Virus record (IMG/VR): IMGVR_UViG_2706794691_000018
Length of the DNA stretch: 13,851 bases
Strand: one strand, 5' to 3'
Origin: a virus
Taxonomy: Duplodnaviria; Heunggongvirae; Uroviricota; Caudoviricetes
Positions 1 through 12,398 of the stretch are shown in pieces. Under the pieces are notes generated by a model. The model was not told where the DNA came from, searched no databases, and was given only the letters and a program-made list of their open reading frames with translations. A program made the translations under genes and the position numbers. The number at the start of each line of letters is the position of its first letter. Position 1 is the first letter of the stretch.

Positions 1-354
1 TTAAAAAAAGAACAAATGGTAGTGTCCGCTATTGCCAGTACACCTCAATTGCTCTGCGGCTTCGCTCAGAGCTGGCGTATGTTCCCGGCCTACTGATTCA
101 CACAGGTAATCAACGAAACCGGACACCAGTTTTCGTTCGCGAGGCGTGATCGCCCCACCGACCGGAGTCCAGTAATCGAAACCCAGTTGCAGGAGTTTGA
201 AAAAACGCTTGTGGAATGCGTAGTTACACACACGCTTAAAGTCTGCGTGTATCCACTCACCTATTTTGATTTGATGCAGAAAATCGCAACTCTCCGGCGT
301 CGCCGGGAGAAGTAATCCGGAAGAGGTTTGTTTGACCAGTTGTATATGTGCCAT
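1..354 (-). CDS. hypothetical phage protein, about 117 aa (MAHIQLVKQTSSGLL...), stop codon at window positions 1-3
   Basis: ORF 1..396 on minus strand; internal ATG at 354 is preceded by GGAGAAAG (reverse complement of 355-362), so it is the preferred start. No family recognised. Confidence 0.45.
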   Translation of the reverse strand: MAHIQLVKQTSSGLLLPATPESCDFLHQIKIGEWIHADFKRVCNYAFHKRFFKLLQLGFDYWTPVGGAITPRERKLVSGFVDYLCESVGREHTPALSEAAEQLRCTGNSGHYHLFFF

Positions 355-392
355 CGGCTTTCTCCGGTGGCACGGTGTTACACAGCAGGAGT

Positions 393-680
393 TCAATCCT
401 GCTCAAGATTGTAGATGAGTTTATTCTTCAGCAAAAGCAGAAAACCAGCCTTAAAACCAATCTCTTTCAAAACCCGTAATGATGTGACAAATTCGTCCTC
501 ACGCAAAATAAAACCGTCCGTCAGAAGTCCATTACAAAAATAAAATAACACAGCACCGCTCTTCCTTTGTTGAGATTGCAAACATCTAATGCGGCAATGG
601 CTGACAATCGCTCCATTCTCAACGCGCACAGCATAGAGGCCATTTTCACTAAAAATTTCACGCAATTCTTCGATTTTCAT
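393..680 (-). CDS. hypothetical small protein, 95 aa (MKIEELREIFSENGLYAVRV...)
   Basis: Minus-strand ORF with ATG at 680 preceded by GGAAGGA; lies downstream of a candidate promoter at 762-789. No family recognised. Confidence 0.5.
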   Translation of the reverse strand: MKIEELREIFSENGLYAVRVENGAIVSHCRIRCLQSQQRKSGAVLFYFCNGLLTDGFILREDEFVTSLRVLKEIGFKAGFLLLLKNKLIYNLEQD

Positions 681-761
681 CTTCAGAATCCTTCCAGATA
701 AATAGCTCTCCCCTGTTCGGGGTCCATCCCTCTTCTCCCTGCGCGCTACTTAAGTGAGTCG

Positions 762-789
762 ATTCTATCTGCGAAGGTGCGCGAATCAA
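762..789 (-). promoter_or_regulatory. putative sigma70 promoter (-35 TTGATT, 16-bp spacer, -10 TAGAAT) for the 95-aa and 117-aa genes
   Basis: Reverse complement of 784-789 is TTGATT and of 762-767 is TAGAAT; sits directly after the hok terminator and about 80 nt before the 680 start codon. Confidence 0.3.
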
Positions 790-796
790 ATTCACC

Positions 797-854
797 GGAA
801 ATAAACAACAAAAAACCCGCCGAAACGCTGAGAGATCACAGCGATGGGCGGGTT
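797..854 (-). terminator. Rho-independent terminator closing the hok transcript
   Basis: On the minus strand an 8-bp stem (814-821 with 847-854) with an inner 5-bp stem (826-830 with 839-843) is followed by TTTTTGTTGTTTATTT (reverse complement of 797-813). Confidence 0.5.
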
Positions 855-929
855 AAGTGCGGGTGCGTTGAGGATGCCTGACACATCAGAGGTGGGCGGG
901 GATGGGATCAGCTCCCCGCCCGGTCACTC

Positions 930-1085
930 TTACTTCCTGGATTCGTAGTCTACGAAGACAGCGACCTCCGTCTGGCCGGTTCGGATTCGTACCTCACAGA
1001 GGTCTTTCCTCGTTACCAGTGCCGTCACTATGACGGTTAAACAGATGACGATCAGGGCGATTAACATCGCCTTTTGCTGCTTCAT
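930..1085 (-). CDS. hok: Hok/Gef-family type I toxin, 51 aa (MKQQKAMLIALIVICLTVIVTALVTRKDLCEVRIRTGQTEVAVFVDYESRK)
   Basis: Strong resemblance to HokD/RelF and Gef as I recall them (single TM helix, LTRKDLCE, TEVAVF motif); AAGGAGAAG Shine-Dalgarno immediately upstream of ATG at 1085. The longer track ORF 930..1142 is an in-frame upstream extension. Confidence 0.8.
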   Translation of the reverse strand: MKQQKAMLIALIVICLTVIVTALVTRKDLCEVRIRTGQTEVAVFVDYESRK

Positions 1086-1291
1086 AGCCTGCTTCTCCTT
1101 GCCTTTCGGCATGTAAGAGGCTAACCTACATGTGCAAAGCATGAAATTGGCCTCAGATTAATGTTAAGCGTCTTGCCGGACGCGTAATGTTAACTGGGGC
1201 TTTTCTCTATCTGCCTTTTGGTGTTCATGCCTGAAGCAGATAGCCTCAAGCACCCGCAGTCATTCTACTTACCTCGCCAATATGAAATCAA
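1086..1291 (-). promoter_or_regulatory. hok mRNA leader with putative hok promoter (-35 TTGATT, 18-bp spacer, -10 TAGAAT, reverse complement of 1262-1291); region expected to carry mok start and antisense sok
   Basis: Promoter hexamers seen on the minus strand. Candidate antisense promoter on the plus strand is TTGCCT (1099-1104), 17-bp spacer, TAACCT (1122-1127). Inverted repeat CTATCTGC (1207-1214) with GCAGATAG (1236-1243) fits a structured leader. Confidence 0.35.
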
Positions 1292-1312
1292 TCAGAAAGG
1301 TGCCCCATAAAA

Positions 1313-1999
1313 TCACTCCTTCTCTTCTTTACCGTAGTGGAGTTGACCAATTTTGATAAGAGGGCGTCCCTGAGATTTGCGGTGTAGATTGGTATCGCGC
1401 AGAGAATACACACAGCCACAATATTCCTGCTGATAGAATTTTTCGCGCTTGCTGATTTCAATCATACGGGACGAGCCGCCCTGCTTGCGCCAGTTATAAT
1501 CCCAGTACACCATGCCCGGATAATGCGCGACGGCTCGCCGCCCACAGTCGTTAACCTGCTGCATATTTTTCCAGCGTGAAATGCCCAGTGAACTGCTGAT
1601 CACACTGAAACCATTTTCAGCGGCGTACAGCGCTGTCCGCTCAAAACGCATGTCAAAACACATGGTGCAACGGATCCCTCGTTCGGGCTCCCATTCCATT
1701 CCTTTGGCTCGTTCAAACCAGTTGTCTGTGTCGTAATCAGCATCAATAAACGGCACGCCGTGTTGTTCAGCAAAGCGAATATTCTCATCCTTACGAATTA
1801 AATACTCTTTCTGAGGATGAATGTTCGGGTTGTAGAAAAAGATGGTGTAGTCGATTCCCGAGGCCTGAAGCGCCTCCATCACCTCACCGGAACATGGAGC
1901 ACAGCAAGAGTGCAGTAGTAGTTTGTTTGCCCCGTTTGGGAGCTCCAATTTGGGCCGTTTGAAATCAGCAACTGTCATAAATATGTTTATTGGGGTCAT
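1313..1999 (-). CDS. DUF208 family protein, QueH-like putative epoxyqueuosine reductase (tRNA queuosine maturation), 228 aa
   Basis: N-terminal [11 protein letters not shown] motif plus later RCTMCFD and YCGCVYS cysteine motifs match what I recall of the Fe-S enzyme family QueH/DUF208. Start uncertain (ATG at 1999 or 1978; neither has a clear Shine-Dalgarno). Confidence 0.5.
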
Positions 2000-2146
2000 A
2001 AAAATATCAAAGAGTGTAGCATTAGAACGGGGCTATCGGAAACAGATGTGTGACTGCTCCCCGCCCTTTCGGGTGGTCTCCTGATGATTTGAGGGTGCAG
2101 AAATCCCTCCGGTTAAGGATTAAATTTTTAACAGTGCTAAATTTAA

Positions 2147-2503
2147 TTATTCAGTTCTGGATTTTGTCGCCCTGCGTATCCGCGCTTTCGCGTTACGCTC
2201 AATCTGTATCAGCTTTTCTATATTTCTCCGCCTTTCCTGTTCCTCCTGGCGCAATAGCCTTACATCATCTGCCAGTCTGGTTTCTCTTTTTGCCACAGAG
2301 AGCATCCAGTCAAACGGCTCCACAACCGCACCGCAGATTTTACAGCGGACCTGACGCTCTTTTTCGTCAACCCGTACAGAGGCGTGATGGCAATATGGTC
2401 TTTCCGATGGCTCATAAAGAAAATTAACCTGATTACGAGGGTCATCCTCTTTTACCGGAAATAAAACGATATTGCTTAACTCATCTTCTGGTTTTATTTC
2501 CAT
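2147..2503 (-). CDS. phage zinc-ribbon protein with basic coiled-coil C-terminus, 118 aa
   Basis: ATG at 2503 preceded by AAGGAGAGGAG; contains YCHH...CKICG metal-binding-like spacing followed by an R/E/K-rich helical tail. The track ORF 2147..2560 is an upstream extension. Confidence 0.55.
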   Translation of the reverse strand: MEIKPEDELSNIVLFPVKEDDPRNQVNFLYEPSERPYCHHASVRVDEKERQVRCKICGAVVEPFDWMLSVAKRETRLADDVRLLRQEEQERRRNIEKLIQIERNAKARIRRATKSRTE

Positions 2504-2560
2504 GCTCCTCTCCTTTGATGCGAATGCCAGCGGTAATTGAAGCCTGATAGCTAATTTCAT

Positions 2561-3252
2561 TCACAGTATCGCCTCCTGAAAATTACCCTGATAGAAAGCC
2601 AGTACACGCTGCATAGCTTCGCTCTTCCGGCACTCGCGACAGATTATATTCAGGCGCCTGTCGTAGCGGCGTATTTCTCCGTCAGGTAATGACCAGATAA
2701 GGTCCGGATCAACAACAACCGGTTTCCTCACCTTTACTCTCGAGAGTTTTTTGCGGGCGCTTTGCCAGTCCTTGCGAGCCTGTTCAGACGGGAATAAGCC
2801 GTAGCCAGAATTATATACATCACCACTTGCGACCAGTTCTATGCATAAGCGACCGACAGACGCACGACTGATACCTGTTTCATCTGACAACTGCCGANNN
2901 NNNNNNNNNNNNNNNNNNNNNNNNNNNNNNNNNNNNNNNNNNNNNNNNNNNNNNNNNNNNNNNNNNNNNNNNNNNNNNNNNNNNNNNNNNNNNNNNNNNN
3001 NNNNNNNNNNNNNNNNNNNNNNNNNNNNNNNNNNNNNNNNNNNNNNNNNNNNNNNNNNNNNNNNNNNNNNNNNNNNNNNNNNNNNNNNNNNNNNNNNNNN
3101 NNNNNNNNNNNNNNNNNNNNNNNNNNNNNNNNNNNNNNNNNNNNNNNCCATAGTTCGTTCAGCACTTCTTCACGACTGATATCAAGTCGCGCAGCAAGTT
3201 CTATGGATGTGGCTTTTCCCATTGCTTTCAGTGCGTCAAAAACAGTCTCCAT
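2561..3252 (-). CDS. phage HTH DNA-binding protein at the position of ydaW; interrupted by an N-run, full length unknown
   Basis: N-terminal part ([31 protein letters not shown]) starts at ATG 3252 with GGGAGGAAA upstream and overlaps the ydaV 3' end. C-terminal part (…[23 protein letters not shown]…) ends at 2561. The two parts are in different frames across the gap. Confidence 0.45.
2898..3147. other. masked or unresolved sequence (250 N)
   Basis: Run of N in the supplied sequence. Confidence 1.
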
Positions 3253-4027: not shown

Positions 4028-4855
4028 TTACCCCCTGAAGCCTGGCGGGATCGNNNNNNNNNNNNNNNNNNNNNNNNNNNNNNNNNNNNNNNNNNNNNNN
4101 NNNNNNNNNNNNNNNNNNNNNNNNNNNNNNNNNNNNNNNNNNNNNNNNNNNNNNNNNNNNNNNNNNNNNNNNNNNNNNNNNNNNNNNNNNNNNNNNNNNN
4201 NNNNNNNNNNNNNNNNNNNNNNNNNNNNNNNNNNNNNNNNNNNNNNNNNNNNNNNNNNNNNNNNNNNNNNNNNNNNNNNNNNNNNNNNNNNNNNNNNNNN
4301 NNNNNNNNNNNNNNNNNNNNNNNNNNNNNNNNNNNNNTCCAGAGGGTCAAACTTTTTGACACCTCGATTCCCCCGGGGGGGATTTAGGGGGGGATCTGTT
4401 TTTAGATCTTTATCTGTATCTTTATTAGTTGCCTTTGTGTTGACATCATGTTCAAACACCACTTCAACATCTGTTTGAACACCTGTTAAATTTCTCTCTT
4501 GTTTTGTTTGAACATCTGCTTCCTTTCTGCTTCTTCTGGCCTGAACAGATGCTTTTCCTGCGGCTGATTTTTTGGTTAATTTTTCCCTGACTGATGCCAG
4601 ATCTTCCTCAATCCGAAGATGCACCCATTCCTCGCCGTTATCGCAAAAAAACTCCTGCAAGGATGGTTCAACATCAGCCCATCGCTCGTTAGTCAGACGG
4701 GCAATTTTTGCCAGCCTGTTTTTAGGTATTGGCTTTCCTGTTTGCCAGTAATTGAACATCAGCAACAAATACGCACCATGCTCCTCTGCTGACAAATGCA
4801 TGGTGTCAGCCAGGTAATCAGCTATGTACAGTTGCATGTATGGTAATGCGGCCAT
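4028..4855 (-). CDS. ydaU: phage replication initiator-like protein (DUF1376-like N-terminus); interrupted by an N-run
   Basis: N-terminus MAALPYMQLYIADYLADTMHLSAEEHGAYLLLMFNYWQTGKP; position between ydaT and the DnaC-like gene. Start is one of ATG 4906, 4855 or 4837; the 3' end lies near 4028 but its frame cannot be verified across the gap. Confidence 0.6.
   Translation of the reverse strand: MAALPYMQLYIADYLADTMHLSAEEHGAYLLLMFNYWQTGKPIPKNRLAKIARLTNERWADVEPSLQEFFCDNGEEWVHLRIEEDLASVREKLTKKSAAGKASVQARRSRKEADVQTKQERNLTGVQTDVEVVFEHDVNTKATNKDTDKDLKTDPPLNPPRGNRGVKKFDPLXXXXXXXXXXXXXXXXXXXXXXXXXXXXXXXXXXXXXXXXXXXXXXXXXXXXXXXXXXXXXXXXXXXXXXXXXXXXXXXXXXXXXXXXXXXXXXXXIPPGFRG
4054..4337. other. masked or unresolved sequence (284 N)
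   Basis: Run of N in the supplied sequence. Confidence 1.
4449..4514. repeat. iteron-like repeats TGTT(C/T)(A/G)AACA, three copies, inside the initiator gene (candidate replication origin)
   Basis: TGTTCAAACA at 4449-4458, TGTTTGAACA at 4472-4481 and 4505-4514, with AACATCTG repeated at 4465-4472 and 4511-4518; preceded by two G7 tracts (4375-4381, 4387-4393) and an AT-rich stretch. Confidence 0.35.
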
Positions 4856-4918
4856 AATTGCCCCGTATGATGCTGCCCGGTGGCTTAGAATAAGCACAAA
4901 CAGCATGGAAACTTTTGC

Positions 4919-5341
4919 TTAATGAACAATGACAGAATCGTCGGAAGACCCGCCGCCGCTGAAATGCGCTTTCCGGTAAACGGCTTGGACTGCATCATCA
5001 TGCGCATCAATTGCCGTACTTAACGCTTCCTGCGCCGCCAGTAATGCACGGCGTTCCAGGGTATCGAAGATGCAGAGTCGGTGACGCAGCTCGCGCGGAA
5101 GGATTGCCAGAATTGCTGGGATCAGCTTCTGAATTTTTTCTCTTTGCGTTTTCGTTTCACCTTTCAACCAACGGTGATAGATATTCTGCTGATTATTCCA
5201 GTCCTTGCCTGGTACCAGGGGCAATTCGCCGCCCCCCTGGCGCAGATATTCTTCAGTAATGGCATTGGCTACCCATGCCTGCCCTTTTTCGGCTGCCAGG
5301 GCTAACAACACTGACTCGATGTGCTCATGCTTGATTTTCAT
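4919..5341 (-). CDS. ydaT: Rac prophage YdaT-like protein (putative toxin / cell-division inhibitor), 140 aa
   Basis: Sequence MKIKHEHIESVLLALAAEKGQAW... matches YdaT as I recall it; its start overlaps the ydaS stop as ATGA (5338-5341). Confidence 0.8.
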   Translation of the reverse strand: MKIKHEHIESVLLALAAEKGQAWVANAITEEYLRQGGGELPLVPGKDWNNQQNIYHRWLKGETKTQREKIQKLIPAILAILPRELRHRLCIFDTLERRALLAAQEALSTAIDAHDDAVQAVYRKAHFSGGGSSDDSVIVH

Positions 5342-5592
5342 GAATCAACTCCCATCAGCTTTTTCGTAGTAGTTTTATTTCTGCCAATAGTTAAAATTAC
5401 ATCAGCAGAAAATAATCCGTTTGATGCATGAGCGATTTTTTCAGCGTAATTTGTTTCGCCGGTATATTCTGTGCGAGGCAATTTTCCGTTATCCATCCAT
5501 TTGTAGATTGCTCTTTGGCTGACACCACAAACGTCGGCCACAACAGAAACGCGAACAGTTTTGATTACATCTTCAAGTGTTTTCTGGTTCAT
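5338..5592 (-). CDS. ydaS: Cro-like HTH regulator, 84 aa from the preferred start
   Basis: HTH segment VADVCGVSQRAIYKWMDNGKLP; ATG at 5592 preceded by GAGGGTGAT; divergent from the repressor gene. Confidence 0.65.
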   Translation of the reverse strand: MNQKTLEDVIKTVRVSVVADVCGVSQRAIYKWMDNGKLPRTEYTGETNYAEKIAHASNGLFSADVILTIGRNKTTTKKLMGVDS

Positions 5593-5653
5593 ATCACCCT
5601 CACAATGTGAACTTTGAGTACATGCTATAACAGAACTGACAGTACATTCAAGA
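5593..5653. promoter_or_regulatory. divergent promoter/operator region between the Cro-like and CI-like genes
   Basis: 61-bp intergenic region with direct repeats GAACTttgAGTACAT (5609-5623) and GAACTgacAGTACAT (5633-5647) and the palindrome CACAATGTG (5601-5609). Confidence 0.45.
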
Positions 5654-6091
5654 GTGAATATCATTGAACTTATGGTTCATGAAGATAAAGCGCGTAAAGA
5701 GTTCGCCAGTAGGCTTGCGCTAGCCTGTGAAAACGCTGGTTATGAACAACATGGAAGGCAGGCAGAAATTGCCCGTCGAATGAAATTAACACCAAAAGCG
5801 GTTAGCAAATGGTTTAATGGCGAAACAATTCCTCGCCGAGAGAAATTAAGGGAATTAGCAACACTCATTGGAACAACACCAACCTATCTTTTGGGAGAGG
5901 ATACAGAAGAAAGTGGACAGGTACGTTTCTATCAGGAGTTAAATCCAAGACAAAAAATCATCATTGACCTTCTGGACGAGCTCCCTGACAGTGAGACAGA
6001 TGAACTTTTAAAAACTCTTGAGGAGAAAAAACAGAAGTACAATGCAATTTACGAAGAGCTAGCACGAAAGAAAAAACAAAAAGCCTCTTAA
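5654..6091 (+). CDS. racR: CI-like prophage repressor (XRE-family HTH), 145 aa from GTG 5654 or 139 aa from ATG 5672
   Basis: HTH QAEIARRMKLTPKAVSKWFNGE with a C-terminal acidic/coiled region; divergent from ydaS at the Rac immunity position. Symbol assigned by synteny, not exact sequence recall. Confidence 0.65.
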   Translation: MNIIELMVHEDKARKEFASRLALACENAGYEQHGRQAEIARRMKLTPKAVSKWFNGETIPRREKLRELATLIGTTPTYLLGEDTEESGQVRFYQELNPRQKIIIDLLDELPDSETDELLKTLEEKKQKYNAIYEELARKKKQKAS

Positions 6092-6154
6092 ACCAGCATA
6101 AATCCGGTAGCGTCCCCCTCCGGGTTTGTGCTTCACTTTATCCCATCTCATTTT

Positions 6155-6212
6155 TTTACACACAAAATGTACTTATAGTACTTTACATCAATGAACACAA
6201 AGTACATTATAT
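6155..6212 (+). promoter_or_regulatory. second operator-like cluster with candidate rightward promoter (-35 TTTACA 6182-6187, -10 CATTAT/TTATAT 6205-6212)
   Basis: ATGTACT (6167-6173), AGTACT (6177-6182) and AGTACAT (6201-6207) recur here and share the core of the 5609-5647 repeats; ACACAAA precedes two of them. Confidence 0.3.
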
Positions 6213-6381
6213 ACCTACCAACCCACCCCGCCCCACAGAACGCAGGGCAATACTTCGAGTTACCAGGCAGTGGTCAGGGGTTAAGTAGCCAGCCCGAGGC
6301 GTATGAACATGACGGCAGGGTTCAGATTTTGCAGTGCAGCAGGTTTCAGTTCCGCCACCCGGCGTTAAGGGGAGAGATAAG

Positions 6382-7225: not shown

Positions 7226-7475
7226 NNNNNNNNNNNNNNNNNNNNNNNNNNNNNNNNNNNNNNNNNNNNNNNNNNNNNNNNNNNNNNNNNNNNNNNNNNN
7301 NNNNNNNNNNNNNNNNNNNNNNNNNNNNNNNNNNNNNNNNNNNNNNNNNNNNNNNNNNNNNNNNNNNNNNNNNNNNNNNNNNNNNNNNNNNNNNNNNNNN
7401 NNNNNNNNNNNNNNNNNNNNNNNNNNNNNNNNNNNNNNNNNNNNNNNNNNNNNNNNNNNNNNNNNNNNNNNNNNN
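7226..7475. other. masked or unresolved sequence (250 N) between sieB and kilR
   Basis: Run of N in the supplied sequence. Confidence 1.
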
Positions 7476-11060: not shown

Positions 11061-11905
11061 GCAACCACCAATCGCAAAAGCCGATCTGCAAAAAACTCAG
11101 GGAAACCGTGCACCAGCAGCAATTAAAAATAACGACGTGATTAGTTTTATTAACCAGCCATCAATGAAAGAGCAACTGGCAGCAGCTCTTCCACGCCATA
11201 TGACGGCTGAACGTATGATCCGTATCGCCACCACAGAAATTCGTAAAGTTCCGGCGTTAGGAAACTGTGACACTATGAGTTTTGTCAGTGCAATCGTACA
11301 GTGTTCACAGCTCGGACTTGAGCCCGGTAGCGCCCTCGGTCATGCATATTTACTGCCTTTTGGTAATAAAAACGAAAAGAGCGGTAAAAAAAACGTTCAG
11401 CTAATCATTGGCNNNNNNNNNNNNNNNNNNNNNNNNNNNNNNNNNNNNNNNNNNNNNNNNNNNNNNNNNNNNNNNNNNNNNNNNNNNNNNNNNNNNNNNN
11501 NNNNNNNNNNNNNNNNNNNNNNNNNNNNNNNNNNNNNNNNNNNNNNNNNNNNNNNNNNNNNNNNNNNNNNNNNNNNNNNNNNNNNNNNNNNNNNNNNNNN
11601 NNNNNNNNNNNNNNNNNNNNNNNNNNNNNNNNNNNNNNNNNNNNNNNNNNNNNNNNNNNNNNNNNNNNNNNNNNNNNNNNNNNNNNNNNNNNNNNNNNNN
11701 NNCTGGTAATAACGGGCCGTGGGTAACTCACTGGGAAGAAATGGCAAAGAAAACGGCTATTCGTCGCCTGTTCAAATATCTGCCCGTATCAATTGAGATC
11801 CAGCGTGCAGTATCAATGGATGAAAAGGAACCACTGACAATCGATCCTGCAGATTCCTCTGTATTAACCGGGGAATACAGTGTAATCGATAATTCAGAGG
11901 AATAA
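11053..11905 (+). CDS. recT: recombinase RecT (single-strand annealing protein); central part masked
   Basis: N-terminal 120 aa ([26 protein letters not shown]...) and C-terminal 66 aa (...[33 protein letters not shown]...SVIDNSEE) match RecT; the two parts are in different frames across the N-run. Confidence 0.8.
11413..11702. other. masked or unresolved sequence (290 N) inside recT
   Basis: Run of N in the supplied sequence. Confidence 1.
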
Positions 11906-12038: not shown

Positions 12039-12255
12039 NNNNNNNNNNNNNNNNNNNNNNNNNNNNNNNNNNNNNNNNNNNNNNNNNNNNNNNNNNNNNN
12101 NNNNNNNNNNNNNNNNNNNNNNNNNNNNNNNNNNNNNNNNNNNNNNNNNNNNNNNNNNNNNNNNNNNNNNNNNNNNNNNNNNNNNNNNNNNNNNNNNNNN
12201 NNNNNNNNNNNNNNNNNNNNNNNNNNNNNNNNNNNNNNNNNNNNNNNNNNNNNNN
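12039..12255. other. masked or unresolved sequence (217 N) covering the ralR 3' end and downstream region
   Basis: Run of N in the supplied sequence. Confidence 1.
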
Positions 12256-12332
12256 TAAAACTGATAAATTTTAATTGCGAGAAACTTCAGTCCTCGTGAA
12301 TTGCATTGTATTCAAATTAAAACTTCATAGCT

Positions 12333-12346
12333 GATTATTAATAATC
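12333..12346. repeat. perfect 14-bp palindrome GATTATTAATAATC upstream of xisR
   Basis: Read directly from the sequence; lies 53 bp before the xis start in an AT-rich leader. Confidence 0.3.
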
Positions 12347-12398
12347 AACATCGGGCGTCAATTTAAGTCTAACATTGGCGCCTGCCAGAGGTGATGCG

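Follow-up and report, generated by a model that had tools for sequence, protein, structure and literature searches.

A probable lysis-lysogeny switch combining an exchangeable HK022-like immunity cassette with the Rac allele of ydaT

Published work describes YdaS and YdaT as the Cro and CII analogues of a lambdoid switch, and not as a toxin pair (PMC5917428; PMC8630535; PMC9986795; PMC11879457). Expression of the YdaT protein of the K-12 Rac prophage is toxic and causes filamentation, and the need to keep it repressed accounts for the essentiality of racR (PMC5700373; PMC5700377; PMC11014345; PMC11879457). These studies support, for YdaT, the statement in a preliminary description of the locus treated below that racR is essential because it represses toxic ydaS-ydaT expression. 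When derepressed, K-12 YdaT activates host rcsA and causes filamentation (PMC11879457), while YdaS was found to be non-toxic in one K-12 study (PMC11014345). The structure of YdaT has been described together with its box; the protein is a DNA-binding tetramer with a POU-like helix-turn-helix (HTH) and a four-helix bundle that forms the tetramer (PMC9986795). K-12 YdaT binds its own box, raises racR expression by activating a reverse promoter, and also binds the rcsA promoter (PMC11879457). In prophage CP-933P, whose YdaT shares approximately 30% identity with that of Rac (PMC11879457), the repressor is leaderless and the system behaves as a bistable switch (PMC8630535; PMC9986795); leaderless translation has been shown for PaaR2 (PMC8630535).

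Here we analyzed a window of 13,851 nucleotides, by which we mean the whole stretch of viral DNA studied (IMG/VR record IMGVR_UViG_2706794691_000018). The region at 4919-6091 is very probably where a Rac-like lambdoid prophage controls lysis and lysogeny (immunity), by means of a repressor/Cro/CII-type switch built of two modules. Phage genetic switches of this kind are known, and the region is not a dedicated toxin system. The open reading frames (ORFs) and the sequence of the window place the repressor gene on the plus strand and cro and ydaT on the minus strand, and each of the three products matches a protein family significantly; the PHROGs labels are 'CII-like transcriptional activator', 'transcriptional repressor' and 'transcriptional regulator'. 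The arrangement first described, a CI-like repressor divergent from a Cro-like gene with ydaT behind it, is thus borne out. Downstream of ydaT in the PR operon lie ydaU and then the DnaC-like ydaV, whereas the other flank carries ydaG, ydaF, sieB, kilR, recET, xisR and intR. Unlike K-12 Rac, the prophage runs on past ydaV into nin-region genes. A terminator scan of positions 4850-6350 found no terminators, and no Rfam family matched within 4919-6091, the sole match being sok at 1080-1255.

The first module is an exchangeable immunity cassette of 868 bp (5348-6215) that comprises cro, OR, the repressor gene and OL/PL, and replaces racR-ydaS of K-12. Aligned to K-12 with blastn, the window is 99.3% identical up to 5347, has no counterpart at 5348-6215, and is 98.7% identical from 6216 onwards; alignments of the junctions agree with these borders. 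The cassette therefore ends at the YdaT box on one side and just past the -10 element of PL on the other. A near-full-length copy, conserved at 95-100%, can be found in 1047 of 5426 complete E. coli genomes, and the ydaT allele of the window in 1456 of the same 5426. The two are joined in 618/5426, so that they occur apart more often than together. Free reassortment of modules of this kind fits phage mosaicism better than it fits a co-adapted toxin-repressor pair. A literature search on phage Tritos, which carries the same cassette, or on a link between HK022 and Rac returned nothing specific.

The Cro-like gene of the cassette (5338-5592, minus strand) encodes 84 amino acids of HK022 type, with 58% identity to the Cro protein of HK75/HK022 (E 1e-32) and a match to phrog_35 (E 1.5e-14). 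We take the ATG at 5592 as the likely start, because a Shine-Dalgarno sequence (GAGGGTG, 5601-5595) precedes it and because the product aligns with the N-terminus of HK75 Cro; RefSeq calls the same 255-bp coding sequence. A longer ORF of 108 amino acids from an ATG at 5664 is probably unused, given the alignment with the HK75 protein and the RefSeq call. With YdaS it shares only 6/18 residues, in a single 18-residue stretch (E 0.028). No alignment with DicC was obtained, and no PDB sequence matched the Cro-like protein at E<=1.

The divergent repressor gene (5672-6091, plus strand) encodes 139 amino acids that join an HTH domain like that of HK022 CI to a DicA-like helical tail, without an S24 domain. 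The protein matches HTH_3 at 37.9 bits (cut-off 23) and is 47% identical to HK75 CI over residues 6-102; the recognition helices are nearly identical (TPKAVSKWFNGE here, TPKAISKWFNGE in HK75 CI). With DicA it shares 29% identity over residues 30-137 (E 5e-15), although its score against the NCBIfam DicA subfamily (56.8 bits) is below the cut-off of 101. A profile search found no Peptidase_S24 match, and the alignment shows that the repressor ends where the S24 part of HK75 CI begins, the whole of that part being missing. Induction by RecA-dependent autocleavage is probably not to be expected of such a protein. An AF2 model was all-helical; built without an alignment, it is of low confidence (pLDDT 53) and was used for secondary-structure content only. 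Similarity to RacR is confined to a 33-residue HTH stretch (36%, E 1e-4), a PDB sequence search found only P22 C2 HTH domains, and there was no match to PF15943. We placed the start at the ATG at 5672, since the N-terminus (MVH...) aligns with that of HK75 CI (MVQ...) and RefSeq calls the same 420 bp; an earlier GTG at 5654 was rejected on the same two grounds. We also rejected the idea of a truncated HK022 CI pseudogene, because the alignment with DicA continues through the C-terminus of the repressor, and because the whole protein recurs at 100% identity in the genome of phage Tritos, as its 'CI repressor'.

The operators bring the cassette close to the HK75/HK022 immunity region. The pattern TGWAC-N5-GTACW has 11 strand matches in the window, against 1.8 +/- 1.4 expected, a count reached in 0/200 shuffles. 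Five 15-bp operators are predicted, clustered at 5608-5679 (three, OR) and 6168-6206 (two, OL), and their sequences and spacings match the oR1-3 and oL1-2 annotated in HK75. The repressor and cro genes are separated by an intergenic region of 79 bp (5593-5671), and the three OR dyads begin at 5608, 5632 and 5665. The OR1-like site (TGAACTTTGAGTACA, 5608-5622) is positioned as oR1 of HK75, and the OR2-like site (AGAACTGACAGTACA, 5632-5646) follows 24 bp from it, as does oR2 of HK75 (GGAACTGATAGTACA). The OR3-like site (TGAACTTATGGTTCA, 5665-5679), which overlaps the repressor ATG, is 15/15 identical to HK75 oR3 and shares with it both the 33-bp distance from OR2 and the 7-nt offset to the repressor ATG. 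The two OL sites (TGTACTTATAGTACT, 6168-6182; TGAACACAAAGTACA, 6192-6206) are 24 bp apart, align with HK75 oL2 and oL1, respectively, and overlap a PL-like promoter; a third OL operator was not found here. [quoted passage not shown]

The promoters are predicted with varying support. A PRM-like promoter (CTGACA-17-TATCAT, 5636-5664, plus strand) matches the consensus at 10/12 positions. The PL-like promoter (TTTACA-17-CATTAT, 6182-6210, plus strand) emerged from the scan and aligns with the annotated pL of HK75; both promoters are placed as in HK75. The genes lying under the PL-like promoter are ydaG, ydaF, kilR, ydaE, racC, recET and onward. On the minus strand the consensus scan returned no PR at the 9/12 threshold. 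We assigned a putative PR (5624-5651, minus strand; -35 TTGAAT at 5651-5646, a 16-nt spacer, and an extended -10, TGT-TATAGC, at 5632-5624) solely by its alignment with, and equivalent position to, the annotated pR of HK75. No Shine-Dalgarno sequence precedes the repressor ATG at 5672, and the predicted PRM start falls at or beside this codon, so the repressor mRNA may be leaderless. Leaderless translation is established for lambda cI.

The second module is ydaT (4919-5341, minus strand), the Rac allele of a CII-analogue transcription factor, as judged from sequence identity and profile matches. Its 140-residue product is identical to K-12 YdaT at 139/140 positions, with L13 in place of F13. 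It matches PF06254 at 44.8 bits (cut-off 21) and phrog_163, 'CII-like transcriptional activator', at E 3e-37. There are distant full-length matches to the solved YdaT of CP-933P (8bt1) and to 3c4r, and the residues H56, R57 and W58, which are DNA-binding residues of YdaT (PMC11879457), are all present. The gene has its own Shine-Dalgarno sequence (GGGAG, 5353-5349, minus strand), 7 nt upstream of the start. The cro stop and the ydaT start share an ATGA at 5338-5341 (minus strand), where ...GGA GTT GAT TCA TGA is overlapped by ATG AAA ATC; the 4-nt overlap noticed earlier is therefore real, and the two genes may be translationally coupled.

The same overlap lies inside the spacer of a YdaT DNA-binding site, so coupled translation is not the sole possible reason for its conservation. 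The YdaT box is a perfect inverted repeat, TTGATT-N6-AATCAA, at 5331-5348, spanning the cro stop and the ydaT start, and is the only match without mismatches in the window. It is also the right-hand mosaic junction, since K-12 homology ends at 5347, and the junction alignment shows that this linker is common to the window, K-12 and Tritos. The K-12 site at the equivalent position, ATGATTCATGAAAATCAA, was footprinted by YdaT (PMC11879457), and footprints at the equivalent junction are on record for both K-12 and CP-933P (PMC11879457; PMC9986795). Sites with no more than one mismatch number 2 in the window against 0.13 expected, and two such sites were reached in 1/200 shuffles. The second of them, CTGATTATTAATAATCAA (12331-12348), has one mismatch to the consensus, lies 51 bp upstream of the xisR ATG, and is conserved in the Rac prophages of K-12 and O26. 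It is absent from the 10.4 kb of the Tritos locus that were examined, where the int module differs. The region upstream of xisR is at least 99% identical in 1636 genomes and is too uniform for phylogenetic footprinting of this candidate box, which may be an analogue of the lambda P_I promoter.

These features suggest how the switch could work. In the first module, the short repressor would bind the 15-bp dyads (TGAAC-N5-GTACA). Occupation of OR1 and OR2 would turn off PR and with it cro, ydaT and the replication genes ydaU and ydaV. Occupation of OL would turn off PL, silencing kilR, recET and xis-int, while OR3, placed on the repressor's own start, would provide negative autoregulation. Cro presumably acts at the same operators to shut PRM. 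In the second module, YdaT, as the CII analogue, would be translated from the PR transcript right behind cro, using its own Shine-Dalgarno sequence and the 4-nt overlap. By analogy with K-12 Rac and CP-933P, YdaT tetramers would bind the perfect box straddling the ydaT start codon and activate a reverse, PRE-like promoter reading through cro into the repressor gene, thereby favouring lysogeny. A looser scan of the plus strand between the box and the repressor gene found no good sigma-70 match for this promoter and only weak 8/12 candidates, at 5388-5416 and 5440-5468. Toxicity mediated by RcsA, which is likewise known from published homologues, would then be a side effect of YdaT as a regulator.

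An alternative is that the locus is a toxin-backed immunity switch, or addiction system, in which the repressor has been selected to silence toxic cro-ydaT expression, so that its loss kills the cell and the prophage is retained. The preliminary description leaned this way; its immunity region of repressor, Cro and ydaT stands, but its equation with a toxin control switch like racR-ydaS is unsupported. In favour of addiction, deletion of K-12 racR succeeds only together with that of ydaS-ydaT, and loss of kilR does not make it possible (PMC5700373). Silencing of racR leads to filamentation and death (PMC5700377; bioRxiv 10.64898/2026.09.06.749655), and YdaT alone is toxic through RcsA (PMC11014345; PMC11879457). 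The YdaT encoded here, one residue away from that of K-12, would be directly under the repressor-controlled PR, and lethality on derepression is plausible for the YdaT half of the module. However, only this half can be transferred from K-12, because the repressor and Cro of the cassette are unrelated to RacR and YdaS. Loss of the K-12 repressor also triggers excision of Rac and so rescues cells, which is the opposite of addiction (PMC11014345). Furthermore, CP-933P YdaT is non-toxic (PMC8630535), and lambda CII is toxic on overexpression too, yet is not regarded as a toxin (PMC5917428). The cassette is annotated as CI/Cro in the deposited Tritos genome, and its frequent separation from the ydaT allele also argues against addiction. 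Death on derepression cannot discriminate between the two readings, since the repressor is 'essential' in a lysogen of any lambdoid phage. We therefore consider addiction unlikely.

It is far less probable that the locus is a decaying remnant, with intact ORFs in a defective prophage and a circuit that idles apart from residual repression. K-12 Rac is indeed defective, the repressor lacks an SOS-cleavable domain, and late genes are not found within the window. Nevertheless, all three ORFs are intact, the operators and YdaT box are perfect or near-perfect, the strong conservation of the cassette extends across 1047 genomes and to a deposited phage genome, and the prophage continues into nin-region genes. 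The weakest reading, in which the Cro-like gene and ydaT would be a classical type II toxin-antitoxin pair with overlapping genes and proteins in complex, is scarcely credible: the Pfam and RefSeq names ('Bacterial toxin ydaT', 'toxin YdaT family protein') and the overlap of two small genes, of which the first encodes an HTH protein, would fit it, but the name stems from a 2007 prediction unconfirmed by experiments (PMC5917428; PMC9986795), YdaT is a DNA-binding tetramer of solved structure (PMC9986795), co-expression of YdaS leaves YdaT toxicity unmodified (PMC11014345), the HK022 Cro homologue upstream pairs with unrelated CII types (a lambda-like cII in HK75, a 33% identical YdaT allele in Tritos), and the published tests on homologues were negative (PMC8630535; PMC11014345; PMC5917428), which refutes the pairing for them.

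The main value of the lysis-lysogeny reading is a correction: the label 'toxin YdaT' and the K-12 racR story invite a toxin interpretation of every ydaT locus, while the module found here behaves like any other exchangeable immunity cassette of a phage, and its repressor and Cro differ in specificity, being HK022-like. Consequently, K-12 results on RacR and YdaS (operators, PracR4, OxyR control and C-protein cross-talk) should not be carried over to the approximately 1000 complete E. coli genomes with this cassette. Judging from the sequence, lysogens carrying it may be immune to phages of the HK022 immunity type, and YdaT-dependent filamentation upon derepression is still likely. The possible second box before xisR would be a small extension of the published YdaT regulon. 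More tentatively, an element of approximately 30 bp, made up of the YdaT box and the first eight ydaT codons, could serve both as a regulatory site and as a conserved linker for the exchange of whole cassettes between YdaT alleles that are only approximately 30% identical. The same speculative proposal adds control of integration by YdaT through the unreported xisR-intR box (the missing P_I arm), and HK022-type immunity conferred by a repressor that SOS cannot cleave.

Among known systems, K-12 Rac supplies the flanks, which are 97-99% identical in DNA and shared on both the ydaU/ydaV and the ydaG-to-intR sides. The layout of repressor, Cro analogue and CII analogue and the YdaT box overlapping the ydaT ATG are shared as well, so the earlier statement that the same organization is conserved stands for the architecture. 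It does not stand for the genes, since the non-homologous cassette stands in place of racR, ydaS, their intergenic operators, PracR4 and the OxyR site. K-12 has an imperfect box, with ATGATT where the window has the perfect TTGATT, and the 4-nt overlap of cro and ydaT contrasts with the 22 nt that separate ydaS and ydaT in K-12, where the reverse promoter PracR4 lies inside ydaS, a gene absent here. By sequence comparison, the repressor and Cro of this locus are not RacR and YdaS, to which they show only HTH-level similarity. As they belong to an HK022-type cassette, K-12 racR/ydaS genetics cannot be transferred by homology.

With HK022/HK75, the cassette shares the consensus, number and spacing (24 and 33 bp in OR, 24 bp in OL) of the operators, as well as their position relative to the repressor ATG, pR and pL. 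The CI protein of those phages has 235 amino acids and a C-terminal S24 autocleavage domain, whereas the repressor here has 139 and a DicA-like tail. HK75 also has a lambda-type cII with pE, put sites and Nun, while the role of CII falls here to YdaT. The paaR2-ydaS-ydaT region of CP-933P (O157:H7) likewise has a short, non-cleavable repressor, a Cro analogue and YdaT as CII analogue, and its box consensus at the ydaS/ydaT junction, TTGATT-N6-AATCAA, is identical to the site at 5331-5348 (PMC9986795); its repressor operon carries a paaA2-parE2 toxin-antitoxin pair, which has no counterpart here. The alignment of the repressor with DicA of Qin takes in almost the entire protein, the C-terminal tail included, and in both prophages a short S24-less repressor silences a cell-division inhibitor (DicB in Qin, KilR here), although DicC has no similarity to the Cro-like protein. 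In Escherichia phage Tritos (OV696610), the DNA of cro, OR and the YdaT box is nearly identical and the deposited annotation reads CI and Cro. Its YdaT allele, annotated 'Rha family', is only 33% identical to the one here; the left arm of this phage is of dicB/dicF type, and its integrase module is a different one. Finally, the lambda cI-cro-cII logic is shared throughout: divergent PRM and PR, a tripartite OR, OL/PL, a CII-type activator after cro, and replication genes downstream. The parts differ, in that lambda CII has no detectable sequence homology with YdaT, and lambda CI is RecA-cleavable whereas the repressor here is built without an S24 domain.

The three ORFs of the immunity region are present in the window where the preliminary description placed them, with a 139-aa repressor gene (5672-6091, plus strand; credible start ATG 5672) divergent from an 84-aa cro-like gene (5338-5592, minus strand; credible start ATG 5592, Shine-Dalgarno sequence GAGGGTG at 5601-5595), and the 140-aa ydaT ORF at 4919-5341 on the minus strand. 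The start codons are those called by RefSeq in a 99.9% identical genome and correspond to the N-termini of coliphage HK75 Cro and CI. The minus-strand junction reads GGA GTT GAT TCA TGA, with ATG AAA ATC in the +1 register, so the claimed ATGA overlap between the cro-like stop and the ydaT start (5338-5341) is real; a Shine-Dalgarno sequence (GGGAG) lies 7 nt 5' of the ydaT ATG. The 140-aa protein is identical to K-12 YdaT at 139 of 140 positions, matches PF06254 above threshold and the PHROG family "CII-like transcriptional activator" (E 3e-37), and aligns distantly, over its full length, with the solved YdaT of the O157:H7 prophage CP-933P (8bt1) and with 3c4r. By these matches it is a YdaT family member, of the Rac allele.

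The "same organisation" as K-12 that had been proposed does not extend to racR and ydaS. RacR aligns with the window repressor only over a 33-residue HTH stretch and YdaS with the Cro-like protein over 18 residues, and neither window protein qualifies as its K-12 counterpart. The Cro-like protein shares 58% identity with HK75/HK022 Cro (E 1e-32), and the first ~100 residues of the repressor share 47% identity with HK75 CI, including a nearly identical recognition helix (TPKAVSKWFNGE in the window, TPKAISKWFNGE in HK75). Both proteins conform to the HK022 type, except that the repressor has a DicA-like tail and no S24 peptidase domain by domain search or by alignment with HK75 CI. The C-terminal tail of DicA, the Qin prophage repressor, aligns with the remainder of the protein (29% identity, residues 30-137, E 5e-15); the NCBIfam DicA subfamily model scores 56.8 bits, below its cut-off. 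A low-confidence, single-sequence structure model of the repressor is all-helical. On this homology, the immunity cassette belongs to the HK022 type. RefSeq already holds the exact proteins, as does a phage record that labels them CI and Cro, and our literature searches turned up no experiments on the cassette.

A perfect inverted repeat, TTGATT-CATGAA-AATCAA (5331-5348), has the ATGA overlap in its 6-nt spacer. This repeat is exactly the YdaT box defined for CP-933P YdaT by footprinting and ITC (PMC9986795). The K-12 box, ATGATTCATGAAAATCAA, differs from it by one base; it is footprinted by K-12 YdaT and is needed for activation of the reverse promoter (PMC11879457). A ~30-bp block, TGATTCATGAAAATCAAGCATGAnCACATC, comprising the box and ydaT codons 1-8 (MKIKHEHI), aligns between the window, K-12 and the deposited Escherichia phage Tritos (OV696610). 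Upstream of this block K-12 departs from the other two, whereas downstream it is Tritos that departs: it carries the same cassette, but next to a YdaT allele with only 33% identity to that of the window. In blastn, the window matches K-12 Rac at 99.3% identity up to 5347, not at all over 5348-6215, and at 98.7% from 6216 onwards. This gap and the RacR and YdaS mismatches indicate that an 868-bp cassette stands in place of racR, ydaS, the DNA between them and the K-12 OL. Immediately beyond the PL -10, the window, K-12 and Tritos again have sequence in common; together with the block at the YdaT box, this delimits the exchangeable unit as cro-OR-repressor-OL/PL, ending at the YdaT box and the PL transcript start. 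The other cassette boundary, 6216-6240 (ACCCACCCCGCCCCACAGAA...), occurs in three different immunity/left-arm contexts in prophages and phages. Among 5426 complete E. coli genomes, the cassette is found in 1047, the window ydaT allele in 1456 and the two joined in 618; cassette and ydaT reassort freely.

We also observed a near-perfect 18-bp palindrome, CTGATTATTAATAATCAA (12331-12348), which fits the YdaT-box consensus with one mismatch and precedes the xisR ATG (12399) by 51 bp. It is present in the Rac prophages of K-12 (locus L002, 3504-3521) and O26 (locus L001, 14753-14770) and missing from the Tritos locus. By analogy with the CII-dependent P_I of lambda, it could be the P_I counterpart of a CII-like system; it could also be a chance AT-rich palindrome or the site of another protein. 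The region is nearly invariant, and its conservation does not discriminate between these readings. The published YdaT site-mapping paper reports only two YdaT sites in Rac, both at other positions, and is silent on xisR and integrase.

Elsewhere, window 1-3147 does not follow K-12 Rac, in which ydaV is followed by ydaW and then rzpR and trkG. Past ydaV it carries DUF1627, DUF977, QueH, hok and DUF1367 genes, an arrangement seen in fuller Rac-like prophages (O26, APEC O1), and the prophage has probably decayed less than K-12 Rac. The prophage-borne epoxyqueuosine reductase QueH (1313-1999, minus strand; PF02677, 220 bits) lies in a nin-like region; the 3.3-kb stretch containing it matches only two complete E. 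coli genomes (86% coverage, 99.8-99.9% identity), in which the match covers bases 48 to 2897 and stops where a masked N run begins. The minus strand also carries a hok/sok type I toxin-antitoxin locus (930-1255), with a Hok/Gef ORF at 930-1142 (PF01848, 79.9 bits) and sok antisense RNA at 1080-1255 (RF01794, 117 bits). Five masked N runs (217-290 nt) interrupt several genes, namely an ORF beyond ydaV (2898-3147), ydaU (4054-4337), sieB (7226-7475) and recT (11413-11702), and the ralR/DUF1187 region (rcbA in K-12; 12039-12255); ORF lengths across them are uninformative.

Operators were sought by a repeat search and then a search for TGWAC-N5-GTACW, which located five sites in the cassette (5608, 5632, 5665, 6168 and 6192) and one further site in the window; the 11 strand matches compare with 1.8 +/- 1.4 expected, and none of 200 shuffles reached 11. 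In the GenBank entry for HK75, the annotated oR1, oR2 and oR3 are each 15 bp long, with 24 and 33 bp spacing, and oR3 starts 7 nt 5' of the cI ATG. The window sites match this spacing and offset exactly, OR3 is identical at 15/15 positions, and HK75 oL2, oL1 and pL align with the window OL pair and PL hexamers (TTTACA-17-CATTAT, 6182-6210). A putative PR (TTGAAT-16-TGT-TATAGC, 5651-5624, minus strand), weaker than the promoter-scan threshold, was placed by its position relative to HK75 pR. The PRM-like promoter (CTGACA-17-TATCAT, 5636-5664) stops 7 nt short of the repressor ATG, and no Shine-Dalgarno sequence was seen there, which suggests a leaderless repressor mRNA. The lambda cI mRNA is leaderless. 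So is that of PaaR2, the CP-933P repressor (PMC8630535).

From HK022 homology and this operator layout, the repressor would most likely bind OR1/OR2 and OL to silence PR (cro-ydaT-ydaU-ydaV) and PL (ydaG, ydaF, kilR, ydaE, racC, recET, on to xis-int), OR3 over the repressor start would provide autoregulation, and Cro would compete for the same sites. The PR transcript would also supply YdaT, whose translation may be coupled to that of cro. Experiments on the 99%-identical K-12 protein and the CP-933P homologue (PMC11879457, PMC8630535, PMC9986795) make it most likely that a YdaT tetramer on the YdaT box would then activate repressor-sense transcription, following CII/PRE logic. In K-12 the reverse promoter, PracR4, is located within ydaS, a gene that the window lacks, and the window cro gene contains only weak reverse-promoter candidates. 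The repressor has no RecA-cleavable domain.

The preliminary description had an immunity region doubling as a toxin control switch; the immunity region stands, and toxicity on derepression is plausible, but the toxin switch is best not taken as the function of the module. In K-12, racR deletion fails unless ydaS-ydaT is removed, even with kilR deleted (PMC5700373), racR silencing leads to filamentation and death (PMC5700377), and YdaT is toxic via activation of host rcsA, YdaS being non-toxic in one study (PMC11014345, PMC11879457). Since the window YdaT differs from the K-12 protein by one residue, its toxicity upon derepression is a fair expectation. However, the same body of work identifies YdaS and YdaT as the switch's counterparts of Cro and CII (PMC5917428; PMC8630535; PMC9986795; PMC11879457), and lambda CII is likewise toxic when overproduced (Jobling letter, PMC5917428). 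CP-933P YdaT is non-toxic (PMC8630535), and in K-12 repressor loss leads to Rac excision, which rescues the cells (PMC11014345). Given this work, the reassortment of cassette and ydaT, and the finding that a deposited phage genome carries the same cassette, toxicity is best regarded as a by-product of a phage regulator. The classical type II toxin-antitoxin reading that the names in Pfam and RefSeq imply is not supported. The region qualifies as a lambdoid immunity region and works like one, and its cro-OR-repressor-OL/PL unit is a textbook "imm" cassette.
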